In this document: positions 2,067 to 45,171 of the stretch, one piece after another
How positions within the stretch are numbered: position 1 is the first letter of the stretch
Layout of the letters: every line of letters starts with the position of its first letter
Source: Escherichia virus TH13
Sequence record: MT446391.1
Strand: one strand, 5' to 3'
Length of the DNA: 45,377 nucleotides
Translations under genes and position numbers: made by a program
The notes under the pieces: generated by a model
The model's input: the letters and a program-made list of their open reading frames with translations, nothing else
Databases searched by the model: none
What the model was told of the DNA's origin: nothing

Positions 2067-3587
2067 ATGACCGTTAACGTTGACAACCAGCACCCCCTCT
2101 ATGCGCGCATCGCGCCAGAGTGGAAAATGATCCGGGATTGTGTAGCAGGGGAGCGCGCTGTGAAGGCGTGCGGCCCTTTGTACCTGCCACATCCTGCCAG
2201 CGGCGACAATACTGACCCGAAATCACGGGCGCGGTATAAGGCGTATAAGCAACGCGCTGTATTCCTGAACGCCACCGCCCGCACACTTAACGCGCTGTTA
2301 GGCGTTGCCTTTGCTAAACCGGTAAGTCTCGACCTTTCCGGGGCGATGGCGGACCTTATTGACGACGTAGACGGCAGTGGTATGCCGCTGCCGCAACTCC
2401 TGCGCGGTGCTATGTCTGAAGTTCTGCAATCAGGTCGTGCGGGCTTTATGGTGGACTACGATCGCCAGGCGCATTTTGATGAACTGGGTAACGTAGTACC
2501 GCAGACAGCCGCTGAGATGGCGTCACACCGCCCGCTTATCCGCCTGTACACGGCAGAACAGATCATCAACTGGCGGCAGACCCACGGAGCCGATACGCTG
2601 ATTGTGCTGAAGGAGACGGACGAAATCAGCACCGAAGACCCGGACGACTTCGCAAACCACGAAGTAACAATCTGGACTGAATTGCGCATGATTAACGGTG
2701 CAGCACACGCCCGCCGCTGGTACTACAACGCCGACACGTCCGAGGTGCAAATGGACTTGCCGCGCGGATTCACCCGCACCGACCTGGTGCCGCTGGTGGA
2801 TGCTACCGGTAAGGCACTGACACAACTTCCGTTTTGCTGGTGTGGCGCGGTGGACAACAACGCAACGCCAGACGCCGCTCCGCTGGCAGATATCGCGTCC
2901 ATCAACATTAAGCACTACAACGCCGAAGCGGACGTCGCCGAGATCGCGCACATCGTGGGCCAACCTACCCTGGTTGCGACGGGCTTGACTCAATCATGGG
3001 CGGACAAGAACCTGAAGGGAGGCATTGCCCTCGGTGCGACTAAGGGCGTTATCCTGGGCCAGAACATGGACGCTAAACTGATCCAGGCGGAGGAGCGCAA
3101 CTTGTCGGTTGCACTGTGTGAGCGTCGCGAGTTGCAAATGGCTAAACTTGGCGCAGCCCTGGTTGAGAAGGGGACCGCACCTAAGACGGCAACCGAGGCG
3201 GCCTACGATGCGCAGACTGATAACAGTATCCTGTCGCTTATTGCCGGTAACGTTGAGAAGGCTTTCAACCGTGCGCTGCAAATCGTGCAGCTATTCACGG
3301 GCGACACCGCCGACCAGCGCGTAACGCTGAACAAGTTCTACACTGAAATCACGGTTGATGCGCAGCTTATGACCGCGATGATGTCGGGTGTGCAGACTGG
3401 TACGGTCCGACTTGCTGACTTCATCAAGTGGATGATGGCCCAGGGCGTCATTGACGACTCGCAAACCGTCGAGCAGGTGGAAGACGAATTGCGAAATCAG
3501 AATCCATTGCCTCAAATGTCCCCTGATGCGGTAGAATCTACCGAAGAAGACCCGGACAAGGTAGCGGACAATGGCGAGAACGATTAA
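2067..3587 (+). CDS. portal protein
   Basis: 506 aa ORF with good RBS (aaggaaac) directly after the terminase; canonical position and size. Confidence 0.75.
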   Translation: MTVNVDNQHPLYARIAPEWKMIRDCVAGERAVKACGPLYLPHPASGDNTDPKSRARYKAYKQRAVFLNATARTLNALLGVAFAKPVSLDLSGAMADLIDDVDGSGMPLPQLLRGAMSEVLQSGRAGFMVDYDRQAHFDELGNVVPQTAAEMASHRPLIRLYTAEQIINWRQTHGADTLIVLKETDEISTEDPDDFANHEVTIWTELRMINGAAHARRWYYNADTSEVQMDLPRGFTRTDLVPLVDATGKALTQLPFCWCGAVDNNATPDAAPLADIASINIKHYNAEADVAEIAHIVGQPTLVATGLTQSWADKNLKGGIALGATKGVILGQNMDAKLIQAEERNLSVALCERRELQMAKLGAALVEKGTAPKTATEAAYDAQTDNSILSLIAGNVEKAFNRALQIVQLFTGDTADQRVTLNKFYTEITVDAQLMTAMMSGVQTGTVRLADFIKWMMAQGVIDDSQTVEQVEDELRNQNPLPQMSPDAVESTEEDPDKVADNGEND

Positions 3588-5122: not shown

Positions 5123-5887
5123 TTAGCGCGGAATACCGCAAATCTCGTTTAGCGTCTTCACGTCCAGCGCCACCGCCGTGGACTTCGGCTTATCCGGGTA
5201 TGGAATAAACTGTTCAACTTCAGGCCACGCCTTGATCAGTTTCTTATCGGTATTGTGCATATCCAGTACGCCGGTAACTGTTAGTTTGAACGCGTCATAC
5301 TTCGCACGCAATTCGCGGCGGGCCTTGTCGTTGCGATCTAGGCGCTTGCAGAAGTCGTGGTCTGCCGGGTAGTCTACGCGACCGCGCGGAAGATATATCG
5401 GCAGCGATTTTCCGTCCTCGTCCACTTCGCACACTGAAGCCAGCATAACTTCCTCGTACCCCGGTACGATATCACCGAGATCGGGAGATAGCTTGTTCAA
5501 ATATTTCTCTTCCCAGTATCCGCGGTGCAGGCGGTATCGGTATCCATCGCCGCTCAATGATACGGTGCGAACATTACCGCCTGCGTTGATATCGAATCCG
5601 GCGCTATAAACGCTGCCGATGCCTTTTGGCCGGTCGGAGTTATAGCTATACGTCGCCTTGTCGGTGTAAACGCTAACGCCATACATCTGCGACTGGTTAT
5701 CGCGGATTTCTGCGATATATGCGCGTAACTCGGCGAACGTGCGAATGCCTTCCGGCATACAGTCCAGCGTAATGGCGTACGCCAAGTCGCGAGAGTCCAT
5801 CATGATGGATTTTGCTTCGGTCGCGATTTCATGGTCGCGCAGGATGTTAGCCAGAATCTTGTTTTTAACGTCTTTTGTCAGTCTCAT
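5123..5887 (-). CDS. hypothetical protein (reverse-oriented moron in head module)
   Basis: 254 aa from internal ATG (MRLTKDVKNK...) of the 403-aa track ORF; upstream extension would overlap the scaffold gene; no recognisable motifs. Confidence 0.6.
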   Translation of the reverse strand: MRLTKDVKNKILANILRDHEIATEAKSIMMDSRDLAYAITLDCMPEGIRTFAELRAYIAEIRDNQSQMYGVSVYTDKATYSYNSDRPKGIGSVYSAGFDINAGGNVRTVSLSGDGYRYRLHRGYWEEKYLNKLSPDLGDIVPGYEEVMLASVCEVDEDGKSLPIYLPRGRVDYPADHDFCKRLDRNDKARRELRAKYDAFKLTVTGVLDMHNTDKKLIKAWPEVEQFIPYPDKPKSTAVALDVKTLNEICGIPR

Positions 5888-5908
5888 TTTTGCGTCCTCG
5901 TTGTTGGT

Positions 5909-5931
5909 GTGCAACCAATATATGCAACCAA
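5909..5931. promoter_or_regulatory. paired TGCAACCAAT motifs in divergent control region
   Basis: two direct copies of tgcaaccaat 13 bp apart between divergent genes 5123..5887 and the scaffold gene; same motif recurs about 20 times in the window. Confidence 0.45.
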
Positions 5932-6035
5932 TACGCGGATTGCAAGCGAATTTTGCGATTATTTTTATCACTGATAATATTAGAGGCGTGAAGTCGAGCG
6001 GGTGGCCCGCTCTGCCACAATCCCAGGGGGATAGC

Positions 6036-11508: not shown

Positions 11509-11819
11509 TGCAGCGGGACGTCCCGTTTTGTCCCGCCTCTGTAAAACTGCATACCTACTCACACCCACTGCATAAACCAAAAACGGGACAAACGGGACGT
11601 CCCGATCTGTCCCGCCATGTAAATGTGCATACCTATTCAGATTTCGTGCATAAAGTAAGCGGGACAAAAAGCGGGACAAACAAGGAGCGGGACAAAGCGG
11701 GACAGCACCCCGTCCCCGCCAGTGCTGCCGCGGGTTGCGGCCGATCGGGACAAGCGGGACAAACCCCAGTCTTTCAGACTAGACGGGGGTCAATGGCCCC
11801 CCTCGTCTGAGACTGAATA
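11509..11819. repeat. GGGACA-iteron element copy 1 (shared ~175-bp core about 11647..11819 plus extra upstream GGGAC(G) repeats)
   Basis: multiple GCGGGACA(A) direct repeats, two CGGGACGTCCCG palindromes, terminal hairpin cagactagacggggg..cccccctcgtctgagactg; near-identical core recurs at 40388..40562. Confidence 0.7.
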
Positions 11820-11883: not shown

Positions 11884-14526
11884 ATGGCAGATCAAGCGGC
11901 AGGCATCACGCTGAAGGCTGATGTTGCACAAATCAGAACGGCAAATACTGTGCTGGACTCCTTCGCACAGAAATCCGAGAACACAGAAAACAAGGTTAAG
12001 AAATTAAACGACACCCTCGGCAAATCCAAAAAGGTCACTGGCGACGCCGCTGGTGGAATGGAGAAGCTGGCGAACGAATCGCAGCGCGCCGCCGACGGCA
12101 TGACGAAACAGGAGAGACTTGCCAACAGGTTAGGCATGTCGACCAAAAACCTGGGCTTTGCCTCGCGTAACGCCGCATTCCAGTTACAGGATATCGCAGT
12201 TACGCTTGAGATGGGTATGCCTGTTCACCGCGTCATGCTTCAGCAGTTACCGCAGCTAACTGGGGCGTTCGGCGGTCTTGGTAACACGCTGCGTTTTGTT
12301 GCGGGCTTCCTCGGTCCGGTAGGGATCGGCATTGCAGCACTAACGGCAACGTTAGGCGTAGGAGTGGCGGTTACGTCCCGTGCCGAAAACCAGGTCGCAG
12401 CGCTTAACAAGACGCTGGCGCTGTCCGGTAACATTTCCGGCCTCACTGCAAACCAGATCCTTGTGCTATCCGAGAACGCCGAGCGCATGGGCGGGTCATT
12501 CCGCAAGACGCGTGACACAATCCAGGCGTTGGCGGCGGCGGGTGTGAAAGCGGGTGCGGACTTCGGCACGCTGGCGAAAGTGGTGAATGACTTTGCGAAG
12601 GTGTCCAGCCAGCCGGTCGAGGATGTGGTCGCGGCGGTGGCGAAGCTGTCTACAGACCCGGTAGGCGGCTTGCGAGCATTGGCTGATAAGTATCACGTCG
12701 TAAACGAAGCGCAGATCCAGCAGGTGCAGTCGCTTGTGGATATGGGTCGCGAAACCGAAGCGGTGGCGCTGGCTAACAAAACAGCCGCAGCGTCGTTTAC
12801 CACTATGACCAACGATATTAAGTCCAACATGGGTACGCTTGAGCGTTCGATGAACGTCGTCACATCGGCAGCTAAATCAATGTGGGATGCCATCCTGGAT
12901 GTTGGACGCGCGCAGTCCTCTAATGAGTCTGAGATGAAAGCGCGTGAATCATTGCAGAGGCTGACCACGGCTTACTATGCCGAGATGAAAGCGGTAAACG
13001 CTGCCGGTGGGGTGATGACCGAAGCGCAGAAAGCGCGTATTAACATGCTTTACAGCGAACTGGTAGCCCAGGAGAAGGTGGTGGCATCGCTCACCCTGCG
13101 CAACCGTGCCGAGCGAGACAACGCAAATGCCGCGGACGAAGCAGCAAAGGCGAACGAAGAGGCAAACCGCACCGCCCGCGACCGCGCTGCGTTTGAGAAG
13201 GAGTACGCAACCAACGCGAAGCGGCGAGCCGACGAGATCGCCCGCCTCAATTTGCTGAATAAGCGCGGTGTTATTAACGAGAAAGAGCTTGCCGAGGCGG
13301 TGAAGCAGGTAAACGAGCGTTACAAAGACCCCGCCCCGAAGAAGGCCGCCGCTGTTCGAGTCGATGCCGGGCTGAAAATGCTGGAAGTCGCGCGAAGCGA
13401 ATTAGCCCAGCTTCGTGAGTCTGGAAAGCAGATCGAAGCCAACTATTCGACGCAGACCCGCACGCAACGCGCGCAAGCGGCCCTTAACAAGCTGATTGCC
13501 GACAACGAGCAGTTAATCGCTGCGAGCAAAGAAAGGGCGCTGACGGCAGCAGAGAAGCAGCAAATGGCGGGATTCGAGGCGGTTAAATCTGTACGCGAGC
13601 AGATCGTCGAAGAAGCCAAATTGCTGGACGCGAAAGAGAAGCAGGTCAAGGCGCACGCGCAGATCGACGCCTTCGTTAAGAACCAGAACGCCGAGCTAAA
13701 AGCCACCGCGGCGGGCTATGCGCTTTCCACTCGCGAAGCGGCTAACCTGCGCGAAGAATTGCAGCTAATTGACCGCCTTAAGCGGGTGGGCGCTAGTGAT
13801 ACCGATATTGATCTGGCGGTGTCTAAGCTGCGCGAAGTGCAGGAAGCACAGACCGGTGCTAACGCCTCGCTATGGGATGGATTAAGCCGCGGGCTTAAGG
13901 ATAGCGTTGATGAAATGGGTAACGGCTATACGCAGATGGCGTCACTAACAAAATTCACGTTCGGCGCTATGCAGGACACGATGAACGAGTTTTTCGAGAC
14001 TGGCAAGCTGAACGCAAAGGATATGGTTAAGTCCATCCTGAGCGAATTAATCAAGCTGGCTACATCGCAGGCGTTCAAGTCCATCGTTAGCGCTTTCGGT
14101 GGCGACGGCGGCAAAAACGGATTGTTCGGTGCTATCTTCTCCGGCCTGACTAAGAATGCGGACGGCGGAGCGTACGCAGGGGGCAATCTCGCGGCCTATT
14201 CGGGGCAAGTGGTAAGCCAGCCTACCTTTTTCAGTTACGGCGTCCAGGCGTTCGCTAAGGGTGCTGGATTGATGGGGGAGGCTGGACCCGAGGCCATCAT
14301 GCCGCTGAAGCGCGGGCCAGACGGGAAACTTGGCGTTGCCGCTGCCGGTGTAGGCGGGGGGATGATTGTAACGACCAACGTTAACATGGGGACCGGTAAG
14401 ACGGATACCAGTGTTAGCGGACCAGACCCGCGCACCGCGCAGGCGTTCGGAAAGCAAATCACCGAGTCGGTCAAGGCCGAGATCGTGAAGGCGACGAAAC
14501 CGGGTGGTGTACTTTACAAACGATGA
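11884..14526 (+). CDS. tail tape measure protein
   Basis: 880 aa, largely alpha-helical/coiled-coil with Gly-rich C-terminal part; follows G/GT chaperone. Confidence 0.85.
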   Translation: MADQAAGITLKADVAQIRTANTVLDSFAQKSENTENKVKKLNDTLGKSKKVTGDAAGGMEKLANESQRAADGMTKQERLANRLGMSTKNLGFASRNAAFQLQDIAVTLEMGMPVHRVMLQQLPQLTGAFGGLGNTLRFVAGFLGPVGIGIAALTATLGVGVAVTSRAENQVAALNKTLALSGNISGLTANQILVLSENAERMGGSFRKTRDTIQALAAAGVKAGADFGTLAKVVNDFAKVSSQPVEDVVAAVAKLSTDPVGGLRALADKYHVVNEAQIQQVQSLVDMGRETEAVALANKTAAASFTTMTNDIKSNMGTLERSMNVVTSAAKSMWDAILDVGRAQSSNESEMKARESLQRLTTAYYAEMKAVNAAGGVMTEAQKARINMLYSELVAQEKVVASLTLRNRAERDNANAADEAAKANEEANRTARDRAAFEKEYATNAKRRADEIARLNLLNKRGVINEKELAEAVKQVNERYKDPAPKKAAAVRVDAGLKMLEVARSELAQLRESGKQIEANYSTQTRTQRAQAALNKLIADNEQLIAASKERALTAAEKQQMAGFEAVKSVREQIVEEAKLLDAKEKQVKAHAQIDAFVKNQNAELKATAAGYALSTREAANLREELQLIDRLKRVGASDTDIDLAVSKLREVQEAQTGANASLWDGLSRGLKDSVDEMGNGYTQMASLTKFTFGAMQDTMNEFFETGKLNAKDMVKSILSELIKLATSQAFKSIVSAFGGDGGKNGLFGAIFSGLTKNADGGAYAGGNLAAYSGQVVSQPTFFSYGVQAFAKGAGLMGEAGPEAIMPLKRGPDGKLGVAAAGVGGGMIVTTNVNMGTGKTDTSVSGPDPRTAQAFGKQITESVKAEIVKATKPGGVLYKR

Positions 14527-15948: not shown

Positions 15949-16689
15949 ATGTTGACGAAAAAGGTTAAAAGTGATATCGCCGCACACGTTGCGGCATGTC
16001 TGCCGGAAGAAGCCTGCGGGCTGGTCGTCATGGTGGGCCGTAAGCAAGTATTCATCCCGTGCCTGAACGTCTTCGAAGACCCGACCGGCGTGCGCTCACG
16101 CAGAGACGCATTCACGATTAGTGATATGGCCTGGATGGATGCCGAGGATATGGGCGACGTCGTGCGAGTAGTCCACTCGCATCCAGGCCAGCGAGAGCTT
16201 ACACCCTCACTTGGCGACGTTAACGGATGCAACGGCAGCGGCGTAGTCTGGACCATCACTAACGAATATGGCGACTTTATCGAGATCGACCCTGAAGACC
16301 CGCCGCTGGTAGGCCGCCGATTTGTTCTCGGAATTACAGATTGTTATGGCCTCGTCATGGACTGGCACAAAAAGCAGGGTGTAAACCTGCCAGACTTCCG
16401 CGTGCCGTATAACTGGTGGGAGACAGGCGAAAATCTGTATATGGATAATTGGTACGGTGCGGGCTTCAGGGAATGCGAGGAGAATACGCCGGGGGCAATG
16501 GTCATCATGCAGATTAGCGCGCCTGTGCCTAACCACGCTGGGATATTCCTTCCAGGCAACCAACTACTACACCATATCTACGGCAGCCTGTCGAGCGTGA
16601 TTCCCTTCCGGGCAGGATTTTTCCGCGACAATGTGGTTAAATGGGTACGTCATAAAGACCTACCAGGGAATATCACAGAATGGCAATGA
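15949..16689 (+). CDS. tail assembly protein (gpK-like, MPN/JAMM plus NlpC/P60-type)
   Basis: 246 aa; HSHPGQRELTPSLGD JAMM-like motif; synteny. Confidence 0.75.
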   Translation: MLTKKVKSDIAAHVAACLPEEACGLVVMVGRKQVFIPCLNVFEDPTGVRSRRDAFTISDMAWMDAEDMGDVVRVVHSHPGQRELTPSLGDVNGCNGSGVVWTITNEYGDFIEIDPEDPPLVGRRFVLGITDCYGLVMDWHKKQGVNLPDFRVPYNWWETGENLYMDNWYGAGFRECEENTPGAMVIMQISAPVPNHAGIFLPGNQLLHHIYGSLSSVIPFRAGFFRDNVVKWVRHKDLPGNITEWQ

Positions 16690-21985: not shown

Positions 21986-22014
21986 AGTATTACACCGCTC
22001 GATCAAGAATGCAA
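21986..22014 (-). promoter_or_regulatory. sigma70-like promoter for lipoprotein operon (TTGCAT-N16/17-TAATAC)
   Basis: -35 lies within an ATTGGTTGCAT motif overlapping the tail fiber start codon; coordinates approximate. Confidence 0.4.
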
Positions 22015-23859
22015 CCAATTTACGAGGATTTAGCTATGGCAGCGGGTACTCTATCCGTAACGAATAACAGCAAGGCGGTTGTCGGGGTAGGCACGACGTT
22101 TACCACGTTTACAGCTGGCGACTTCTTAACGCTGGTGGTAGGGCAAGTCCCATACACTGTTGCTATCGCGTCAGTCGAAAGCGACACCGCGCTTACGCTG
22201 GTGCTGCCGTTCGACGGCCCCACGGCAACCGATCTCGCGTGGGATGGCGTTAAGCGCGATACCATGTCACTGGCGACGATGGGCGTAACCGTACAGGCAC
22301 AGAAAGCATTGCGCTTGATGCTTGCAGATGAAAACAACTGGCGTGCAATCTTCGGCGACGCTGAAGAAATAACCGTGACGTTGCCTAACGGGCAGGTAAT
22401 GCAGGGTATGTCATGGGGATATCTGTCGCAGTTGATGAAACAGGTCGACCCAGTTGAGATGCGCAACCTGCAACAGCAAGCCGCCGCATCGGAAGCCGCC
22501 GCGCTGGTGTCACGCAACGAGGCCGAAGGCTTCAAGACTGAGACGGCAGGCATTCGCGACGCCACCAATCAGATTAAGGCAGACACACAGGCGATCCACG
22601 ACGCCACGAATACCATCAAGACGCAGACCGACCAGATTAAGACCGACACGCAGGCCATCAAGGACCAGACGAACCAGATCAAGACCGACACCGGCGTTAT
22701 GAGGGACGAGGCAAACACCGCGAAGACTGACGCGCAAGCCGCCAGCACTGCCGCGCAGGGATATCGCGACCAGGCCGAGGAATGGGCGCAAAGCGTTAAC
22801 GCGGATAACCTGCTAACCAAATCCGGCAACCTCGCGGGGCTTGCGGACAAAAGTGCGTCGTGGGCTAACCTTATGCCGTCCGGCCCGCTTCGAGTAGGCG
22901 CTGATCCCGTCGACAATCTGGACGCTGCGACTAGAGGATGGGTGTGGCGCGGTCTTGATGACGTGGGGGTGTGGGCCTTACGCAATAACTATGCTTCGGA
23001 ACCCGCTGGCGGCGCAGAAGTATACGGCGGTCGCTTCGACTCATCTGCGAACGTCGCAGGGGCCGAAAAATACAGAATGTCGCTGCAACTTCAGGGATTT
23101 AATAACGTAGACGCCTGGACACGTTTGGTTACCGCTGACGTCCGCAGCATGGTGAACGCGGCGACGTGGGACTTTAAGATCGATGGTAAGTTGCTTTTCA
23201 ACAAAGGATTGGTTACATCATCCATCTCGGCGTCGCCCGGTAACACCTATGTCACCCTTGCGAATACATGGAGTGACAGCCAATACTCAGGCCACGTAGG
23301 TTTTGTCGGAGGGGGAACTGGGGTGTCTAATGGTGGGTGGCGTAACTTTATTTCGTTCGGGGCGCTGATCCACCCACTAGCCGGTAACTCACACCCCCAC
23401 GCTATGATTTCGCAGGTCTTTGACTATGATTTGTCGACTGGGGTACAGCCCAACGGCGATATCGTTCGAAACACAACATTCAACCCCGAAGCATACGATA
23501 TTACTTTCGGCAACAACTCAGGGACTGTTAACTATCTTTTTTCAAAGTCCCCAGTATCCGACAGGGCGCTGAAGCATGATATCGCCAGGATCGATACTCA
23601 AGTCGCGTACGATAACGTTATGGCTATGGAGTACTCGTCCTTTGTTTATAACTACGACAAAAAAGAGACGGTTAGACGTGGTTTTATCGCGCAGCAGTTG
23701 GAAGAGATCGACCCGCAGTATGTCCGTAAGTACGCCAACGCAACCGGTAAAGAGTCTCTGGCATTGGATGAAAACGTTCTACTACTGGACCTTATCGCGA
23801 CTGTTCAGCATTTAGCGGCAAAGGTTGAAGCCTTAGAAAGTAAGTTAGCGGATAAATAA
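22009..23859 (+). CDS. tail fiber protein with C-terminal intramolecular chaperone (peptidase S74-like) domain
   Basis: 616 aa; repeated xTxxIKxDTQAIxD heptad-like repeats; C-terminal SDRALKHDIARIDTQVAYDNVMAMEYSSFVYNYDKKETVRRGFIAQQLEEIDPQYV matches the self-cleaving chaperone domain of phage fibers/tailspikes. Confidence 0.8.
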   Translation: MQPIYEDLAMAAGTLSVTNNSKAVVGVGTTFTTFTAGDFLTLVVGQVPYTVAIASVESDTALTLVLPFDGPTATDLAWDGVKRDTMSLATMGVTVQAQKALRLMLADENNWRAIFGDAEEITVTLPNGQVMQGMSWGYLSQLMKQVDPVEMRNLQQQAAASEAAALVSRNEAEGFKTETAGIRDATNQIKADTQAIHDATNTIKTQTDQIKTDTQAIKDQTNQIKTDTGVMRDEANTAKTDAQAASTAAQGYRDQAEEWAQSVNADNLLTKSGNLAGLADKSASWANLMPSGPLRVGADPVDNLDAATRGWVWRGLDDVGVWALRNNYASEPAGGAEVYGGRFDSSANVAGAEKYRMSLQLQGFNNVDAWTRLVTADVRSMVNAATWDFKIDGKLLFNKGLVTSSISASPGNTYVTLANTWSDSQYSGHVGFVGGGTGVSNGGWRNFISFGALIHPLAGNSHPHAMISQVFDYDLSTGVQPNGDIVRNTTFNPEAYDITFGNNSGTVNYLFSKSPVSDRALKHDIARIDTQVAYDNVMAMEYSSFVYNYDKKETVRRGFIAQQLEEIDPQYVRKYANATGKESLALDENVLLLDLIATVQHLAAKVEALESKLADK

Positions 23860-25343: not shown

Positions 25344-25363
25344 GGTTAATATAGTTGGTTGCA

Positions 25364-25834
25364 TTATTGGTTGCAAGTGAATTTTGCAAGATTCACAGAA
25401 TAAATATGCGGGACCAGTTCTTCACACGCCCGTTTGATGGCGGCGATGTTCTTCGCGCAGTCGTCAATGATGACCAGTTCGTTAACTTCTGCATAGCACA
25501 CCAGGCCAAATACGGAACGGGCCTTGTACTCTGGCGGCGGCGTGTCATCAAGCATATGGCGTAAGAACAGACGACCTTTCGGGAATCTATCCAATTGCTC
25601 TTTCGTTGACTCCCAGCAATCTGACTGGCGGTTTGACAGGTACGCAATGTCGAAGCCCTGTTTAGCGTACATGCGCAATAACGGCAGCATGTCATAATTA
25701 ATGTCTTCGCGGACGTGGGCCTTATGCCACTTCGCCCAAAACGTTGATTTAGTCTTGATCCCCGGAACTAGGTCGTCGCGCACACTGCTTGACCCGTTGA
25801 TAACGCCATCTAAATCGCAAATCAGTAGTTTCAT
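25364..25834 (-). CDS. HAD-superfamily hydrolase (putative nucleotidase/phosphatase)
   Basis: 156 aa; N-terminal MKLLICDLDGVI matches HAD motif I (DxDG[TV]). Confidence 0.6.
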   Translation of the reverse strand: MKLLICDLDGVINGSSSVRDDLVPGIKTKSTFWAKWHKAHVREDINYDMLPLLRMYAKQGFDIAYLSNRQSDCWESTKEQLDRFPKGRLFLRHMLDDTPPPEYKARSVFGLVCYAEVNELVIIDDCAKNIAAIKRACEELVPHIYSVNLAKFTCNQ

Positions 25835-26963: not shown

Positions 26964-26982
26964 CGTGTTGTCTCCAGGTATT

Positions 26983-27007
26983 AAAAAAGGCGTCCAAACC
27001 GGACACC
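26983..27007 (-). terminator. hairpin plus U-tract (terminator or 5-prime leader structure)
   Basis: minus-strand RNA ggugucc-gguuu-ggacgcc followed by U6; lies just downstream of a promoter-like paired motif, so it may instead be an attenuator. Confidence 0.4.
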
Positions 27008-27017
27008 CTTAAGATAA

Positions 27018-27044
27018 TGCAACCAATATGATTATGCAACCAAT
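27018..27044 (-). promoter_or_regulatory. paired ATGCAACCAAT motifs / candidate promoter (TTGCAT-N17-TATCTT on minus strand)
   Basis: two copies of atgcaaccaat 17 bp apart in the intergenic gap between 27045..27368 and 26505..26963. Confidence 0.4.
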
Positions 27045-29937: not shown

Positions 29938-29968
29938 TTCTAAAATCCTCGATAGTGCTAACCGGCAC

Positions 29969-29997
29969 ACTATACCGCTACGCGACCAATTCAGCAA
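29969..29997 (-). promoter_or_regulatory. sigma70-like promoter (TTGCTG-N17-TATAGT) at left edge of tandem duplication; second copy at about 30556..30584
   Basis: -35 overlaps an AGCAACCAAT motif; -10 TATAGT; coordinates approximate. Confidence 0.4.
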
Positions 29998-30256
29998 CCA
30001 ATAAATCACAGTCGGCTATGTTGTCGATAACGCGAACGTCCGCACCGCGGCGGGCCATTCGTTCATGTTCACGTACCTGGTGCGGCTTCGGTTTCCCACC
30101 TGGGCGCTTCACTTCGACGAACACTATTTTGCCGTTGATGATAATAATCAGGTCGGGCGCACCTGCGCGCCCCTCCCATGCCAGTTTTCGGCAGAATCCC
30201 CCAACGGCTTTAACCAGCTTCATCAGGTGACTTTGTATCTTGCCTTCTGGTGTCAT
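29978..30256 (-). CDS. VRR-NUC domain nuclease, copy 1
   Basis: 92 aa; ...FVEVKRPGGKPKPHQ... with conserved D/E-x-K catalytic core typical of VRR-NUC. Confidence 0.8.
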   Translation of the reverse strand: MTPEGKIQSHLMKLVKAVGGFCRKLAWEGRAGAPDLIIIINGKIVFVEVKRPGGKPKPHQVREHERMARRGADVRVIDNIADCDLLVAELVA

Positions 30257-30444
30257 TTGGTCTGCAACTCCACGTTACGCAGACGAAGGTCTACCGGTAT
30301 ATCCGACCGGCCGGTTAGTGCCAGCGCCAGGTTTTCAGGCGTGACGAGTGCCGTAATGGTCTTGCCACGTTCCAGTCTAATGACGATTCGAATCTCGTCA
30401 TTGTCCGTCGCGCCAGCGCGCATAATGCTCATTTCTGCTTTCAT
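30253..30444 (-). CDS. small hypothetical protein, copy 1
   Basis: 63 aa from ATG (MKAEMSIMRAG...) with RBS caggaag; ATGA overlap with VRR-NUC. Confidence 0.45.
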   Translation of the reverse strand: MKAEMSIMRAGATDNDEIRIVIRLERGKTITALVTPENLALALTGRSDIPVDLRLRNVELQTK

Positions 30445-30564
30445 AATCTTACTTCCTGTACCTGTACATAATGTCGCCTTCGGCGGCAAGTGGGAAGCCT
30501 TTCGCCCAAATAGGCAGGTCGCACATCTAAAATCCTCGATAGTGCTAACCGGCACACTATACCG

Positions 30565-30843
30565 CTACGCGACCAATTCAGCAACCAATAAATCACAGTC
30601 GGCTATGTTGTCGATAACGCGAACGTCCGCACCGCGGCGGGCCATTCGTTCATGTTCACGTACCTGGTGCGGCTTCGGTTTCCCACCTGGGCGCTTCACT
30701 TCGACGAACACTATTTTGCCGTTGATGATAATAATCAGGTCGGGCGCACCTGCGCGCCCCTCCCATGCCAGTTTTCGGCAGAATCCCCCAACGGCTTTAA
30801 CCAGCTTCATCAGGTGACTTTGTATCTTGCCTTCTGGTGTCAT
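30565..30843 (-). CDS. VRR-NUC domain nuclease, copy 2
   Basis: identical 92-aa translation to copy 1. Confidence 0.8.
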   Translation of the reverse strand: MTPEGKIQSHLMKLVKAVGGFCRKLAWEGRAGAPDLIIIINGKIVFVEVKRPGGKPKPHQVREHERMARRGADVRVIDNIADCDLLVAELVA

Positions 30844-31031
30844 TTGGTCTGCAACTCCACGTTACGCAGACGAAGGTCTACCGGTATATCCGACCGGCCG
30901 GTTAGTGCCAGCGCCAGGTTTTCAGGCGTGACGAGTGCCGTAATGGTCTTGCCACGTTCCAGTCTAATGACGATTCGAATCTCGTCATTGTCCGTCGCGC
31001 CAGCGCGCATAATGCTCATTTCTGCTTTCAT
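30840..31031 (-). CDS. small hypothetical protein, copy 2
   Basis: identical 63-aa translation; begins 5 nt after DNA polymerase stop. Confidence 0.45.
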   Translation of the reverse strand: MKAEMSIMRAGATDNDEIRIVIRLERGKTITALVTPENLALALTGRSDIPVDLRLRNVELQTK

Positions 31032-31035
31032 AATC

Positions 31036-33552: not shown

Positions 33553-34338
33553 TTAACGGCGGCGACGTTTACGTGGCGCTTCGTCTTCGTCGTCGTCCTC
33601 ATCTTCGTCATCGCGTGGCTTACGACGTTTGCGAGGTTTTTCATCTTCCTCATCGTCGTCATCACGACGTTTTGACTTTTTGGACTTGCGCGGCTTGTCA
33701 TCTTCATCATCGTCATCACGACGTTTTGACTTTTTGGACTTGCGCGGTGCTTCGTCTTCGTCGTCGTTGTCGTTGTCCAGGTCTTCATCGGAGCAAGAAG
33801 ACCCGCCACCTCCGAAGGCTTCGCCGTCTTCACGGAATCGCAGACCCAGCAAGCCAGCCCCGAGACCTTTGCCGTTGGTATTGTTCCATGCCCAAATATC
33901 AAGGGACACGTTGCAATAACAACCGGAGTAGATCTCCTGGCCTTCGATCTCGTCGCCTTCTACGTTCAGACCTTGTTCCGTCTGCTTCTCGCCGAGTGAC
34001 GTTTGAATGATCGGCTGTTTGAACGATTTGGCGTTGATATACAACATGCCTTCGAATTCTTCGGTTACTTCGTCGCGCTCGTCACCGTCGCGAACTGCGC
34101 ATTCCTTAGAATCCTGGGCGTAGTGGCGGTCCATCCACTTATCGGCATTCTTCTCGGATTTCAGCTTATCGGTGAGCACTGCGCGCGCTGCCGCTTCCAC
34201 TTTGTCCACCTGCGGATCTTCTTTATCCAGAAGAATAACGGCACGGTATGCCGGTTTTTGACCATCCTGTTTAGGGGTATCACGTTCCCAAATTTTAAGG
34301 AAGCATACGCGCACATTTTTCAGGTTGACTTTAGCCAT
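33553..34338 (-). CDS. ssDNA-binding-like protein with C-terminal charged-repeat tail
   Basis: 261 aa from ATG (MAKVNLKNVRVCF...) with RBS gaggaa; N-terminal OB-fold-like region; C-terminal 18-aa repeats KPRKSKKSKRRDDDDEDD. Confidence 0.5.
   Translation of the reverse strand: MAKVNLKNVRVCFLKIWERDTPKQDGQKPAYRAVILLDKEDPQVDKVEAAARAVLTDKLKSEKNADKWMDRHYAQDSKECAVRDGDERDEVTEEFEGMLYINAKSFKQPIIQTSLGEKQTEQGLNVEGDEIEGQEIYSGCYCNVSLDIWAWNNTNGKGLGAGLLGLRFREDGEAFGGGGSSCSDEDLDNDNDDEDEAPRKSKKSKRRDDDDEDDKPRKSKKSKRRDDDDEEDEKPRKRRKPRDDEDEDDDEDEAPRKRRRR
33659..33747 (-). repeat. in-frame coding tandem repeat (54-bp period) in SSB-like gene
   Basis: tcatcacgacgttttgactttttggacttgcgcgg repeated twice. Confidence 0.6.
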
Positions 34339-34428
34339 TTTCCAATTCCTCATTTTCACATGTATCGGGGTTATTGTGAGCCACCCCGTCCGGCTTGGTT
34401 GCTAATCTACTTGGTTGCGCCTGAGCGG

Positions 34429-34671
34429 TCAAGCATTTTTATTAAAAAGATTTCGTGTCACGTAGTTGGTGGCGTTCTCGATCCAGCTTAACGGCGGGCG
34501 TTCGATGTTCTTTTCCACCCAATCGACGGCAACTTCGCTATAGCCGTCATCCAGCCAGCGGGTCGGATGGCGAATCATCCACGCCACCATTAACACGCCT
34601 TGCACGCAATGCAGGATAAAGCCCAGCGCTCCGAGCAAAAACATCAATAAGATTGCGAATACTTTATTCAT
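34429..34671 (-). CDS. small membrane protein
   Basis: 80 aa; N-terminal hydrophobic helices (VFAILLMFLLGALGFILHCVQGVLMVAWMI). Confidence 0.5.
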   Translation of the reverse strand: MNKVFAILLMFLLGALGFILHCVQGVLMVAWMIRHPTRWLDDGYSEVAVDWVEKNIERPPLSWIENATNYVTRNLFNKNA

Positions 34672-36282: not shown

Positions 36283-36534
36283 TTATTTCGTCTCCCAGCG
36301 GTCAATCGTTCTTGCTTCGGATGCAACCGCAAAGCGAACATATTCCAGATTGGAGTCCGCCCAAATATAAAAGTCGGGGTTAGTAAAGGTGGTGCGCTTG
36401 ATTTGCGCGGGCGTGTTACGGCGTTTATCTATTACGGCAACGCGGGATTGAAAGCTGCCGATGCGTTCGAATAGCCAATAGTACGGGCGCTGGTCGCGGG
36501 AATCCACCGCCTCGATTAGCGTGAATCGTGCCAT
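36283..36534 (-). CDS. hypothetical protein
   Basis: 83 aa; RBS gaggacgag. Confidence 0.5.
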   Translation of the reverse strand: MARFTLIEAVDSRDQRPYYWLFERIGSFQSRVAVIDKRRNTPAQIKRTTFTNPDFYIWADSNLEYVRFAVASEARTIDRWETK

Positions 36535-37231: not shown

Positions 37232-37468
37232 GGTATATCTCCGATTGGTTAAGTTTAGGTGTCGGCAGTTAACTTCGTCGCTGGCCTTAACATATTGCCA
37301 GGTTACGCGTTCTCCCGTTCGGGTAGTGGACCTGGTTATATAATCACGGTTGGGAATCCTGACACTTCGATCCGGCCCCTGCGTTGCCCCTCTCCAGTTT
37401 GCGTCCTGCATCCTGTCGACGGAGTGAATGATAGATTGGTTGCAGGATAGGTGTCAACAACTAATTTC

Positions 37469-37502
37469 AAAAAAAAAGCGCCGAGGCAAAATGCGACGGC
37501 GC
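37469..37502 (-). terminator. promoter-proximal rho-independent terminator in early control region
   Basis: minus-strand gcgccg..cggcgc hairpin (plus 37478..37502) followed by U9. Confidence 0.6.
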
Positions 37503-37527
37503 TAACCAATAAGAGACAATGAGACGA
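37469..37527 (-). ncRNA. candidate short leader/small RNA between leftward promoter and terminator
   Basis: predicted leftward promoter at 37533..37561 followed within about 60 nt by a strong terminator; no ORF. Confidence 0.25.
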
Positions 37528-37532
37528 GAATT

Positions 37533-37561
37533 ATTATTACACGCGTGCGCGCCCGTTTCAA
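37533..37561 (-). promoter_or_regulatory. sigma70-like leftward promoter (TTGAAA-N17-AATAAT)
   Basis: read on the minus strand; back-to-back with the rightward promoter. Confidence 0.45.
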
Positions 37562-37573
37562 TATCCAAAGGAT

Positions 37574-37602
37574 TTGACACCGTGCAGTTTTGGGTGTAGT
37601 TT
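37574..37602 (+). promoter_or_regulatory. sigma70-like rightward promoter (TTGACA-N17-TAGTTT)
   Basis: consensus -35 TTGACA, 17-bp spacer, weak -10; about 30 nt upstream of the HTH gene. Confidence 0.45.
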
Positions 37603-37633
37603 CGTTGGTCATTAACCAACTGAGGGCAGAGCA

Positions 37634-37963
37634 ATGAATGTAAACGACGCAATCGAAATGTTAACGAAGACTGTTTGCAGTGAGACAAGCCGGTCGTGGG
37701 CATACACCGATGCCGTGGGGGCTGTGTTATTTGAAATCGAACGACTGCGGCTTACCGAAAAAGAATTGCGCGCCAGGCTGGAACTACTCAACGGTACAGC
37801 AGCAAGCAAGCTGCAAAAACACAATGAAGAAATGGAAGAATACAAAAAGCAGGTTATCCGTTTGCGCGCCGAGGGTAAATCATGGGCGATGATTGCCGAG
37901 TTGACCGGGATTAATCAGAGCACAGTGCGCTCCTGGGTACGCAATAATAAAACTTCTAAGTAA
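37634..37963 (+). CDS. putative DNA-binding regulator (C-terminal helix-turn-helix)
   Basis: 109 aa; coiled-coil middle, C-terminal GKSWAMIAELTGINQSTVRSWVRNN HTH-like segment. Confidence 0.5.
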   Translation: MNVNDAIEMLTKTVCSETSRSWAYTDAVGAVLFEIERLRLTEKELRARLELLNGTAASKLQKHNEEMEEYKKQVIRLRAEGKSWAMIAELTGINQSTVRSWVRNNKTSK

Positions 37964-40238: not shown

Positions 40239-40313
40239 ATTTTGCGCGCATTGGTTGCCGATATGGGAATTCCCATATCGCTAGAAGATTAAATTTTGCG
40301 CGCATTGGTTGCC
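40231..40313. repeat. 29-bp perfect direct repeats flanking a 22-bp perfect palindrome
   Basis: aagattaaattttgcgcgcattggttgcc x2 around cgatatgggaattcccatatcg; third partial copy (tattggttgcc) about 40339; first repeat contains the primase stop codon. Confidence 0.7.
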
Positions 40314-40387
40314 ATTTTGAGTGTTTTTATCTGGTCGTATTGGTTGCCGTGTAGTGTAAATATAGTGAATAGTTATGCAGTTTTATT

Positions 40388-40562
40388 GCATAAAGTAAGC
40401 GGGACAAAAAGCGGGACAAACAAGGGGCGGGACAAAGCGGGACAGCACCCCTGTCCCACCCCGGATGACGCGGCCTGGAGAGGAGCGGGACAGGCGGGAC
40501 AACCCCCAGTCTTTCAGACTAGACGGGGGGTCAATGGCCCCCCTCGTCTGAGACTGAATAAA
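40388..40562. repeat. GGGACA-iteron element copy 2
   Basis: tgcataaagtaagcgggacaaaaagcgggacaaacaagg-gcgggacaaagcgggacagcaccc ... agtctttcagactagacgggggg-tcaatgg-cccccctcgtctgagactgaataa; about 75 bp 5-prime and 60 bp 3-prime near-identical to copy 1, middle about 40 bp diverged. Confidence 0.7.
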
Positions 40563-40716
40563 ATCCGGGGATTGCAAAATACACGGCAGCATGATGCGAA
40601 GTGCGGTCGAGGATGAACTAGGCAACCAATGCGAGATGCATTATGCTGAGTGAAAAATGCAGTTTGCAGTCACAGCAGATAGCGATCAACTTTTTCATGC
40701 GCATGTTTGATATTGG

Positions 40717-40745
40717 TTGCATTCAACCCGGCACCTGGCTATATT
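40717..40745 (+). promoter_or_regulatory. sigma70-like promoter (TTGCAT-N17-TATATT) for 40774 operon
   Basis: -35 is part of an ATTGGTTGCAT motif; about 30 nt upstream of the start codon. Confidence 0.5.
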
Positions 40746-40773
40746 GGTTGCGCACCAACATGAGGACTGAACA

Positions 40774-41064
40774 ATGAGAGCGTTAATCTGGAATTACACA
40801 ATGGCAGTGGCAAAACCGGTCGAAGCGAGATATACCAACGGCAGAGCACCGTGGGAGCGCCTGGTAGCTCCGACCTGGTTTGCGGTCATGGATGCGACCG
40901 CGGGCATGGAAGACCCCGAGCCGTTGCGCGCGGCTATCAGGGCTTACGCGCTTGCATTTGCCCGTGAACGCCTGGCCTATCGCTTCGGTATTGGCGATAA
41001 GGCAGTGACAAACGTCGCCCGGATTAAAGCCCAGCGCGAACTATTCTCCAAGCTTGCGAAATAA
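40774..41064 (+). CDS. hypothetical protein
   Basis: 96 aa; RBS gagga. Confidence 0.5.
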   Translation: MRALIWNYTMAVAKPVEARYTNGRAPWERLVAPTWFAVMDATAGMEDPEPLRAAIRAYALAFARERLAYRFGIGDKAVTNVARIKAQRELFSKLAK

Positions 41065-41073
41065 GGGGCCAAA

Positions 41074-41343
41074 ATGAGCCGTAGGCGCGCTAAACAGCTT
41101 TCCTGGCATATCCCCCTGCATTGCATACGAATATGGGCTGAGAATGCGGTTGAGGGCGAATCTGTATTCTGGTGCTATCGCGATGATGTGAAGCCGTTGA
41201 CGCAGACTCGCTACTTGCACCAGTTCGCAGCACAACACGATTTCAGGGTGCGTACTTCCTTGCAACCAATTGGAATACGTATTACATTACGCCGGAAGCC
41301 CGCCGTTGAGCGGGTAGGCAAACACTGGAGACTGAGCAAATGA
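41074..41343 (+). CDS. hypothetical protein
   Basis: 89 aa. Confidence 0.45.
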   Translation: MSRRRAKQLSWHIPLHCIRIWAENAVEGESVFWCYRDDVKPLTQTRYLHQFAAQHDFRVRTSLQPIGIRITLRRKPAVERVGKHWRLSK

Positions 41344-43823: not shown

Positions 43824-43886
43824 TTGCTTGACTTGCAACCAACATAGACTCCATACTGCGACCAATCAACGAGAGGAGTAATCAAG

Positions 43887-44028: not shown

Positions 44029-45171
44029 ATGCACCCGCAAACTAAAATTACCGATGAGCAATTGATCGCAGAAATTCAGGCAGGGACTACGGTTAAAGAT
44101 ATTGCGAAGAAATACGGGATTGCCCTACGCAATGTTTATATGCGGAAAGCCCGCCTATCGAAAAAAGGCATTGGACACGGCAACGATGCCGTAATCCGCA
44201 AGCGCGTTGCCGATGGCTTTGGGGTTAAGCGCGTATCGGCCCTGGTGCGCGGTAATGGCGAAGAGGTCATGTCGTGGATCATCACTGAGCAGGACAAGGA
44301 GCGCCAACTCGAAGCTATGCGCGCTGTTGTCGATGGTATGAACAGCGAAATCACACCGGCAGCGCCCGTAAACGCCCCGCCAGTACCGGTCCATGCACTG
44401 GACCTACTCAACCTGTACACCGTGTCCGACTTCCACCTGGGCATGTTGGCCTGGGGCGAGGAGACTGGCGAAGACTGGGATATGGCGATTGCAGAAGACC
44501 TGTTTTACCGCTGGTTTGTCGAAGCCTTCGCACGCGCACCGGACGCAGGCACTGCCGTAATTAATATCCTCGGTGATATGGCGCATTTTGATAGCCTTGA
44601 TGCGGTCACCCCAGCCAGCGGGCACGTACTGGACGCGGATACCCGCTACCAGAAACTGGTCCGCTACATGATTCGCATGGTGCGCAACGTGGTAGACTTG
44701 GCACTGCAAAAACACCACAAAGTCAAACTTCTAATCGTCCAGGGGAATCATGACGAATCGGGCATGATTTGGCTGGCTGAAATGTTCAACACCCTGTACG
44801 AGAACGAGCCGCGCGTCGATGTGGATACGTCCCCGGACGTATACAAAATGGTGCAACACGGCAAGACCACGCTGTTCTTCCACCACGGGCACAAAGCGCG
44901 CTTCGATGCTATTGAAACCGTCATGATTTCCAAATTCAGACAGGCGTTCGGGTCCAGCGAGTACAGCTACGCGCATGTAGGCCACTTGCACCACCAGAAG
45001 ATTGTAGAATCCCGCAACATGATTGTTGAACAACACCGGACCCTCGCCGCGAAAGACGCATATGCCAGCCGCGGCGGTTGGATGTCCGGTCGTAGCGCCA
45101 ACGTAATAACCTACAGCGCCAACTACGGCGAAGTAGCGCGCTTAACCATTAGCCCGGAAATGTTGAAATGA
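44029..45171 (+). CDS. HTH-domain / calcineurin-like metallophosphoesterase fusion protein
   Basis: 380 aa; N-terminal HTH-like TVKDIAKKYGIALRNVYMRKARL; phosphoesterase motifs DFHLG, GDMAHFD, GNHDE, HHGH, GHLHH. Confidence 0.65.
   Translation: MHPQTKITDEQLIAEIQAGTTVKDIAKKYGIALRNVYMRKARLSKKGIGHGNDAVIRKRVADGFGVKRVSALVRGNGEEVMSWIITEQDKERQLEAMRAVVDGMNSEITPAAPVNAPPVPVHALDLLNLYTVSDFHLGMLAWGEETGEDWDMAIAEDLFYRWFVEAFARAPDAGTAVINILGDMAHFDSLDAVTPASGHVLDADTRYQKLVRYMIRMVRNVVDLALQKHHKVKLLIVQGNHDESGMIWLAEMFNTLYENEPRVDVDTSPDVYKMVQHGKTTLFFHHGHKARFDAIETVMISKFRQAFGSSEYSYAHVGHLHHQKIVESRNMIVEQHRTLAAKDAYASRGGWMSGRSANVITYSANYGEVARLTISPEMLK

Follow-up and report, generated by a model that had tools for sequence, protein, structure and literature searches.

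The word TTGGTTGC(A), repeated along the 45,377-bp sequence of Escherichia virus TH13 (MT446391.1), is proposed to be a short asymmetric operator that overlies early, middle, lysis-side and accessory sigma-70-type promoters and is read by one protein, most likely the product of the gene 37634..37963, a reading to which we give a probability of about 0.5. The whole of this sequence, hereafter the window, has 54% G+C; it represents a full or almost full genome of the genus Dhillonvirus, which comprises virulent E. coli siphophages of the HK578/SO-1 type. From the enrichment of the word, its conservation and its placement at promoters, we infer that one sequence-specific protein reads it.

Enrichment, promoter placement and conservation of the word

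The preliminary description of the window had claimed strong enrichment of the word at about 20 sites, mostly intergenic and often in direct pairs 13-19 bp apart. In the present analysis, TTGGTTGC/GCAACCAA was found in 22 exact copies on both strands, against a mean of 1.89 (standard deviation 1.38, maximum 6) in dinucleotide-preserving shuffles, none of 100 of which reached 22. The 20 positions listed earlier were all correct to within 1 base, the extra copies being those at 13207 and 16556. The excess in intergenic DNA was borne out: non-coding sequence makes up 8.9% of the window yet contains 15 of the 22 copies (binomial P about 2e-11). The spacing had been roughly right, with intervals of 12, 13, 16 and 17 bp in close direct pairs and of 31, 35 and 54 bp in wider ones. 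Because the sites 29994 and 30581 are one site doubled by an exact 587-bp tandem duplication, 21 copies are independent. The extended consensus is (t)A-TTGGTTGC-(a), that is tATTGGTTGCa, and copies with one mismatch are few, the relevant ones being TTGGTCGC at 29982 and 43858. No consistent bias was seen in the polarity of the motif relative to replication or transcription. Phage T1 carries eight scattered copies of TTGGTTGC (1.9 expected), seven of them coding and none with promoter context; a handful of coding copies may therefore mean nothing, and the signal resides in the roughly 17 promoter-linked copies of the window.

Nearly every non-coding copy overlaps a predicted sigma-70-type promoter oriented with the neighbouring genes. 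Searching for -35-like and -10-like hexamers 16-18 bp apart and aimed at the downstream gene yielded 12 promoter-like stretches at 11 independent motif loci and one at the gp47-gene leader palindrome (37574-37602), all in gene direction. Promoter matches of at least 8/12 are overlapped by 11 of the 22 copies compared with 10.7% of random positions, about fivefold above random. The claim that the TTGCA part coincides with a -35 hexamer was likewise confirmed, a -10-like hexamer following TTGCnn by 16-18 nt in 8 of the 22 copies compared with 3.7% of all TTGNNN in the window (P about 6e-7). The motif provides TTGCA(T/A) as the -35 in forward orientation at 22011, 27036, 29994/30581 and 40713 and in reversed form (TTGCAAccaa) at 25367 and 41262. 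At 5924, 25355, 27019, 34411 and 37436 it lies in the spacer and ends 1-2 nt 5' of the -10, the copy at 43835 adjoining the -35 instead, and at 5911, 40744, 34395 and the degenerate 43858 it starts within or just after the -10. Start offsets from the -10, taken by hand from the promoter strings, are about -27, -21, -16, -10, +4 and +7, in both orientations, with 12 promoter-linked copies forward and 8 reverse.

These frequencies could mean that RNA polymerase holoenzyme reads the word directly, as a core promoter variant in which a TTGCA-type -35 is extended upstream, with no dedicated regulator involved, and the same idea draws on the reversed word, which gives the -35 of the promoters at 25376 and 41260, and on Klebsiella phage 37P2 (L134, Guernseyvirinae), where TTGCAA-17-TATAGT promoters occur twice, at 732 and 23540 (other copies of the word there lie, for example, at 7086 and 10587). 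However, about half of the copies in the window belong to promoters equipped with a TTGAC(A/C/T) -35 of their own, where they adjoin the -10 on its spacer side or closely follow it; the TTGG half of the word is no more variable than the TTGC half, a constancy that a -35 hexamer leaves unexplained; and one copy flips in place. Orthologous promoters, moreover, lack the word. The promoter of the gene for the single-stranded DNA (ssDNA)-binding protein is a plain TTGACA-17-TAAATT/TATATT/TATAGT without the motif in Serratia phage Otaku, Salmonella phage SE1 and Hafnia phage TS33, whereas in the window the spacer contains one copy and a second follows the -10, and in 37P2 a copy directly succeeds TTGACA. 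The word thus comes on top of a promoter architecture that looks complete without it, and we regard a core element read by the holoenzyme as very unlikely.

Neither a fixed position and orientation nor regular presence in orthologous promoters, as expected of a core element, was found. The dyad symmetry of a classical palindromic operator is absent from the consensus as well, and only three special sites form TTGGT-N5-ACCAA palindromes (5904-5918, 37605-37619 and 40744-40758; 0.05 expected). Each of these lies directly 3' of a -10 and a few bases 5' of a ribosome-binding site, and the one at 37605-37619, in the leader of the gene 37634..37963, is perfectly kept in six relatives. As in systems with palindromic operators, the sites overlap core promoter elements, including those of the regulator's own promoter if the regulator is the candidate 37634..37963. 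Because position varies, orientation is free, the TTGG half is equally conserved and orthologous promoters lack the motif, TTGGTTGC probably behaves as an operator overlaid on promoters and not as a core promoter element. It had been described beforehand as a phage-wide promoter or operator element, and of this the operator part stands; the promoter-element part does not agree with the variable position and orientation and the absence from orthologous promoters, nor the term phage-wide with the terminase promoter and structural block, which the word does not mark.

The terminase promoter, a perfect extended -10 promoter TGTTATAAT that directly follows a terminator hairpin (11-50) and stands 50 bp before the small terminase gene, is arranged identically in all Dhillonviruses checked and is likely the late promoter. 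The structural gene block has no promoter-linked copies except in the divergent 5917-5945 region, and the motif-marked promoters are early/middle, lysis-side and moron (accessory) promoters. Compared by eye, none of the consensus sequences of sigma-54, alternative sigma factors, DnaA, IHF, CRP and Fis fits the word. An RNA element was rejected, with no Rfam match in the window and with many sites upstream of any predicted start.

The word is conserved among relatives. Eight complete genomes (SO-1, PaulFeyerabend, Bas83, JL1, Opt212, slur06, HK578 and CHD5UKE2) have 18-22 copies at the same loci, and the word is also enriched in the diverged metagenomic contigs L009, L010 and L138, the copy numbers of the three being 9 (over 6 kb), 10 (over 10.7 kb) and 12 (over 20 kb); the primase-helicase of two of them is 67-69% identical to that of the window. 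In local alignments, motif columns were 96% identical to the window compared with 88% in the 25 columns on each side, flanks that include the conserved promoter hexamers, and 87.5% of motif columns were invariant compared with 70% of flanking ones. The motif copy number evidently changes through repeat recombination, as suggested by three tandem 17-bp units (three copies) at the 27036 locus of PaulFeyerabend and by the fusion of two copies to one in JL1 (5924 locus) and Opt212 (40744 locus). The spacer copy at 25355 is inverted, with its place kept, in SO-1, JL1, Bas83, Opt212 and PaulFeyerabend relative to the window and slur06, and 43858-43865 is a full motif in JL1, slur06 and Bas83. The VRR-NUC gene encodes, at its 3' end, a peptide E-L-V-A-E-L that is written GAA TTG GTT GCx in the window and 37P2 and GCT TTA GTG GCG in SE1; since the codon choice differs at this peptide, the word is maintained there at the DNA level.

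Candidate reader and proposed regulation

Two helix-turn-helix (HTH) proteins had been named beforehand as possible binders, and they fared differently. The 109-amino-acid (aa) product of 37634..37963 is a genuine HTH protein, residues 65-105 matching the Pfam families HTH_23 (30.8 bits, cut-off 24.6), HTH_28 (28.4, cut-off 25) and Sigma70_r4_2 (27.8, cut-off 25.7). The 380-aa product of 44029..45171 has a weak HTH-like N-terminus (residues about 8-48; GerE E = 1e-3, below the cut-off) and a calcineurin-like metallophosphoesterase domain, and its promoter carries two motif copies, one of them degenerate in the window. It was rejected as the reader: the part of contig L010 that was read (10.7 of 31.6 kb) keeps the motif, and its lysozyme-terminase interval contains no such gene, only one of 51 aa.

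The AlphaFold model of the 109-aa protein (pLDDT 85) consists of a short helix, a 54-residue helix and the HTH, and the protein is a probable coiled-coil dimer with a C-terminal HTH. Foldseek returned generic HTH matches only, all with E > 0.4. Database pipelines name the protein a transposase, resolvase or Gam inhibitor, names that are unsupported, since only HTH families matched and neither a catalytic domain nor similarity to Gam was found; HTH_Tnp_1 scored 15.2 bits, below its cut-off of 24.1, and no other domain was detected. Homologues were found in Dhillonvirus-like phages only. Among them, residues 47-106 are nearly invariant, whereas the first 45 residues have been replaced by unrelated sequence several times, variant homologues of 142-149 aa being present in HK578 and CHD5UKE2. 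The C-terminal 60 aa are about 85% identical in L009, whose primase-helicase is 69% identical, and such an invariant C-terminal region is what would be expected of a regulator locked to about 20 sites. In a comparison of the window type with L009 and L010, the motif or a variant of it always lies between the -10 and the ribosome-binding site of the HTH gene, in leaders that are otherwise different, and the leftward early promoter always has one or two motif copies in its spacer. That the 37634..37963 product is the protein reading TTGGTTGC is the weakest step of the model, and this assignment, made from sequence comparison, is put forward tentatively.

Considering these results, the following scenario is proposed. 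At promoters whose own -35 is good (37457, 34432, 43828 and the leader of the HTH gene itself), a protein bound in the spacer or directly behind the -10 would block RNA polymerase, which could bring about a Cro-like shut-down of early transcription together with autoregulation. Sites that themselves provide a weak -35 (TTGCAT, TTGCTG) could mediate either repression or activation. The terminase promoter, with its extended -10 and no motif, would escape this control, giving a simple shift from early to late expression, and the copies that flank the putative origin block described below may govern transcription into it.

Other readers and a possible replication role

Several observations weigh against the 109-aa protein as the reader. 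HK578 and CHD5UKE2 have no motif in the leader of their variant HTH gene; the close pairs, 12-17 bp apart, show no helical phasing, which is unexpected for a simple dimer; and a literature search found no binding, transcription, 5'-end or RNA-seq data for any Dhillonvirus. The word is also enriched in 37P2 (13 copies, 1.5 expected), several copies lying in promoters and some at orthologous positions, and in the Serratia phages Otaku and Tsm2 (12 copies each, many in coding sequence), and no homologue of the 109-aa protein was found in these three phages, even by profile search. In L138, furthermore, the motif is unchanged though the HTH protein is 45% identical, whereas the repeat GCGGGACA of the putative origin has become GGGGTGCCA there. 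The L138 protein keeps the recognition segment TGIN-ST(V/I)(R/K)-W, and the unchanged motif fits conserved recognition-helix residues and a conserved host reader equally well.

Because the motif-bearing 37P2, Otaku and Tsm2 are without a homologue of the 109-aa protein, a serious rival, though one that we judge unlikely, is an operator whose reader is a conserved Enterobacterales host protein or else an unrecognised phage protein that some Guernseyvirinae also possess, the 109-aa HTH protein having another role. The early-regulator slot of the three phages is occupied by a Cro/C1-type HTH protein unrelated to the 109-aa protein and encoded at 13574..13810 in 37P2, and motif positions are orthologous at the ssDNA-binding-gene promoter in 37P2 and at the VRR-NUC 3' end in 37P2 and Otaku/Tsm2. 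In 37P2, five of the 13 copies sit in a 16-bp near-palindrome, ATGTTGGTTGCAATAT, in clear promoter contexts. However, no host factor with this site could be named: the word resembles what we take to be the CytR half-site GTTGCATT and the PdhR/UxuR half-site ATTGGT in part only, the 3' flank that CytR would need is variable, and the palindromes of the window have N5 compared with N3 in what is presumably an ATTGGT-N3-ACCAAT box. SE1 and TS33 have one copy each, the T1 copies are not linked to promoters, and many of the coding copies in Otaku and Tsm2 may be background.

The search for a shared phage reader eliminated several candidates. All-against-all comparison of the open reading frames of the window, 37P2, Otaku and SE1 gave only a small Dam-type methyltransferase with the matching pattern; it is the only gene that tracks the motif, SE1 and TS33 being without it. 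Such an enzyme would be unlikely to read an asymmetric site of 8 bp, and its co-occurrence with the motif is regarded as a coincidence among few lineages. The Cro-type protein is also present in SE1, and its recognition helix, as read from the alignment, does not track the motif. An 83-aa protein (36283..36534) common to all these phages had no Pfam match and no DNA-binding signature by eye, a regular-expression search for the recognition-helix pattern gave no match, and Pfam scans of 20 small 37P2 proteins revealed no other HTH. The same word in promoters of Dhillonvirus and of a Klebsiella/Serratia subset of Guernseyvirinae, with non-homologous early HTH regulators, may point to a host sensor or to two unrelated regulators held to a 'frozen' operator code by about 20 sites, an idea that we consider improbable.

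The word could also be a replication element, either an iteron or a loading site for the 754-aa primase-helicase, comparable to the octamers of P4 alpha at ori and crr. At 40239-40773, just past the primase-helicase gene ('region B' of the SO-1 record), six motif copies lie within about 500 bp (40251-40751), and four of them, three direct and one inverted, have the flank CG(C/T)ATTGGTTGCC and form inverted repeats that bracket a block of GCGGGACA. The C-terminal end of the primase-helicase also appeared winged-helix-like by eye in alignments, a reading that no domain search supports. In the portion of the SO-1 GenBank record consulted, the annotation is limited to flagging two repeat regions, this stretch being one of direct, inverted and palindromic repeats. 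The tight tandem clusters, however, are formed by the different repeat GCGGGACA, with 15 copies compared with 1.9 expected. They are concentrated at 11529-11761, before the tape-measure gene, and at 40399-40501, after the primase-helicase gene, in a duplicated block of about 170 bp that includes a hairpin in both places. This repeat changes with the primase-helicase lineage, being replaced by GGGGTGCCA in L138 and possibly by TTCCGCACA in Otaku/Tsm2, whereas TTGGTTGC mostly occurs as scattered single copies or pairs, at promoters as far as 35 kb from there. An iteron would form a tandem cluster whose sequence tracks the initiator lineage, and TTGGTTGC is identical where the primase-helicase is 45-70% identical; the primase-helicase was rejected as its reader because the origin repeats co-vary with that protein and TTGGTTGC does not. 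A replication role of TTGGTTGC is thus very improbable. The GCGGGACA blocks are probably origin iterons, an ori/crr-like pair, and the putative origin role is assigned to GCGGGACA and the putative transcriptional role to TTGGTTGC.

Other repeats were noted in the same searches. The octamer ACGGCAGC occurs in 28 copies (1549 to 45255) compared with 2.6 in shuffles, a stronger enrichment than that of TTGGTTGC; its copies are spread genome-wide in three codon phases (17 sense, 8 antisense and 3 intergenic), 20 of them on the plus strand. Among the Dhillonvirus and Guernseyvirinae genomes examined, it is the most enriched word in the majority, SE1 and TS33, with their single copies of TTGGTTGC, included. 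The octamer is a signal at the DNA level and is not the Chi sequence of E. coli. When viral contigs were scanned for paired motifs, the matches were Dhillonviruses and, for the most part, tandem repeats in coding sequence. One unrelated viral contig, L070 (IMG/VR contig 3300038463_000167), has an iteron-like cluster with the same 10-mer as the window, in which CTAATTGGTTGCATCC occurs at least 12 times, in either orientation, over 420 bp (2750-3180), together with GGTTGCATC variants; no similarity was found between its proteins and those of the window.

Genome context, related systems and implications

The window is about 93% identical in nucleotide sequence to Escherichia phage slur06 across 20 kb and 88-93% identical to many other members, and its gene order is that of annotated Dhillonvirus relatives (Table 1). 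The product of the accessory gene 5123..5887 (minus strand) contains nucleotide modification associated domain 5 (Nmad5; Pfam E = 1e-56), and the slot of this gene is occupied by differing genes among relatives. The 587-bp exact tandem duplication (29939-30525 and 30526-31112) copies the VRR-NUC gene and an adjacent open reading frame, which are single in all relatives examined, and could be a real recent event or an assembly artefact. At 26970-27043, a transcript from the motif-pair promoter would start inside the 5' arm of an intrinsic terminator hairpin and could escape termination.

Table 1. Motif sites, promoters and gene blocks of the window
Position	Strand	Feature
99-20740	+	Packaging, head and tail genes
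5911..5931	-	Direct pair of motif copies: 5924-5931 (spacer, adjoining -10) and 5911-5918 (overlaps -10 end)
5917..5945	-	Promoter TTGCAA-17-TATATT of accessory gene 5123..5887
13207..13214	-	Motif copy in tape-measure gene, probably background
16556..16563	-	Motif copy in minor tail gene, probably background
3' of structural block	- (membrane genes)	Two membrane genes, then tail fibre gene
21986..22014	-	Promoter-like TTGCAT-17-AATACT, for lipoprotein and membrane-protein genes (minus strand)
22011..22018	-	Single motif copy, TTGCAT being the -35
37411 down to 23885	-	Long leftward replication/recombination operon
25348..25376	-	Promoter TTGCAA-17-TATATT within leftward operon
25355..25374	+	Two copies, reversed relative to transcription: one gives -35 TTGCAA, other in spacer
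27011..27039	-	Promoter-like TTGCAT-17-TATCTT between stop codon and terminator hairpin
27019..27043	-	Two direct copies, 17 bp apart: first is -35, second in spacer
29969-29997	-	Promoter-like TTGCTG-17-TATAGT around VRR-NUC motif site
29982..30001	-	Motif and degenerate TTGGTCGC in 3' end of VRR-NUC gene, encoding L-V-A
30569..30588	-	Exact duplicate of 29982..30001 site via 587-bp duplication; promoter-like stretch 30556-30584
34395..34418	+	Two copies, reversed relative to transcription: one in spacer adjoining -10, one starting 1 nt after -10
34404..34432	-	Promoter TTGACC-17-TAGATT upstream of ssDNA-binding gene 33553..34359
37412-37633		Divergent promoter region
37428..37457	-	Leftward early promoter TTGACA-18-TATCAT, 11/12 matches, strongest predicted of its region
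37436..37443	+	Single copy in spacer of leftward early promoter
37574..37619	+	Rightward early promoter TTGACA-17-TAGTTT (37574-37602), then palindrome TTGGTCATTAACCAA (37605-37619) in HTH-gene leader
37634..37963	+	Candidate binder, 109 aa: variable N-terminus, long helix, invariant C-terminal HTH; first rightward early gene
	+	Rightward operon: 109-aa HTH protein, 754-aa primase-helicase, small genes, lysis genes, phosphoesterase; continues towards terminase genes
40251..40347	+	Three direct copies of CG(C/T)ATTGGTTGCC (40251, 40305, 40340), left of GCGGGACA block
40622..40629	-	Inverted copy GGCAACCAATGCG, right of GCGGGACA block; 13-nt inverted repeat with three left copies
40713..40758	+	Two copies (40713 is -35; 40744 just after -10) with palindrome TTGGTTGCGCACCAA
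40717-40745	+	Promoter TTGCAT-17-TATATT ahead of gene 40774..41064
41260..41288	+	Promoter-like TTGCAA-17-TACATT, -35 from reversed motif 41262-41269, inside gene 41074..41343
43828..43865	+	Promoter TTGACT-18-CATACT after terminator, upstream of 44029..45171
43828..43865	+	Motif 43835-43842 in spacer next to -35; degenerate copy 43858-43865 just after -10

No description of the TTGGTTGC motif was found in the searched literature, and the set belongs with the dispersed regulatory sites of phages, apparently resembling lambda Cro in its logic and the stoperators of mycobacteriophage L5 in its dispersion and asymmetry. As with the lambda Cro/CI operators (OR, OL), sites lie over divergent early promoters, the candidate regulator is first in the rightward operon and a site lies in its own promoter region. 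The lambda operators, however, are 17-bp near-palindromes at two loci, whereas here an asymmetric word of 8-10 bp is spread over about 12 promoter loci, with no fixed orientation or position; unlike lambda, annotations of the relatives include no lysogeny genes. The L5 stoperators are asymmetric sites dispersed at about 20-30 places, mostly in short intergenic gaps, that have one orientation relative to transcription and are bound by a single phage protein, gp71, which also acts at an early promoter, and they act on elongation. The sites of the window are likewise dispersed, asymmetric and mostly intergenic, but their orientation is mixed and they lie on core promoter elements.

In the 9-bp MotA box of T4, a phage-specific word stands at about -30, in one orientation, in middle promoters that keep the sigma-70 -10. 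Here, too, the word replaces or overlaps the -35, but only about one-third of the copies do so, and in both orientations. The P4 alpha protein has octamer repeats at ori and crr, in two separated blocks beside the primase-helicase gene, and this likeness, octamer repeats near a primase-helicase gene, fits GCGGGACA better than TTGGTTGC. The L5 stoperators have been cited as an analogy for the 21-nt dispersed direct repeat aaATAGCACnnnTTGnTAAAA of the T1-like phage TLS, which is conserved, intergenic and present in about 20 copies and has an unknown reader (PMC11447400). As an uncharacterised case, the TLS repeat appears to be the closest analogue: TLS is likewise a virulent enterobacterial siphophage with no RNA polymerase of its own and an intergenic repeat known by repeat analysis alone, though the sequence differs.

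Dhillonviruses are common coliphages used in phage-therapy studies and reference collections, and the timing of their gene expression has hitherto been undescribed. The motif provides a map of about 12 promoters and a testable one-regulator model of the early-to-late shift, suggests a regulatory function for a gene commonly labelled 'transposase' or 'Gam inhibitor', and offers compact operator/promoter parts for phage engineering. Its presence in phages without the 109-aa protein raises the question of the reader's identity, which experiments can settle, and the most intriguing loose end is that different genera share the word but no regulator. Should a single conserved host protein be the reader, nearly the whole early and middle transcription of these virulent phages would depend on a host sensor.

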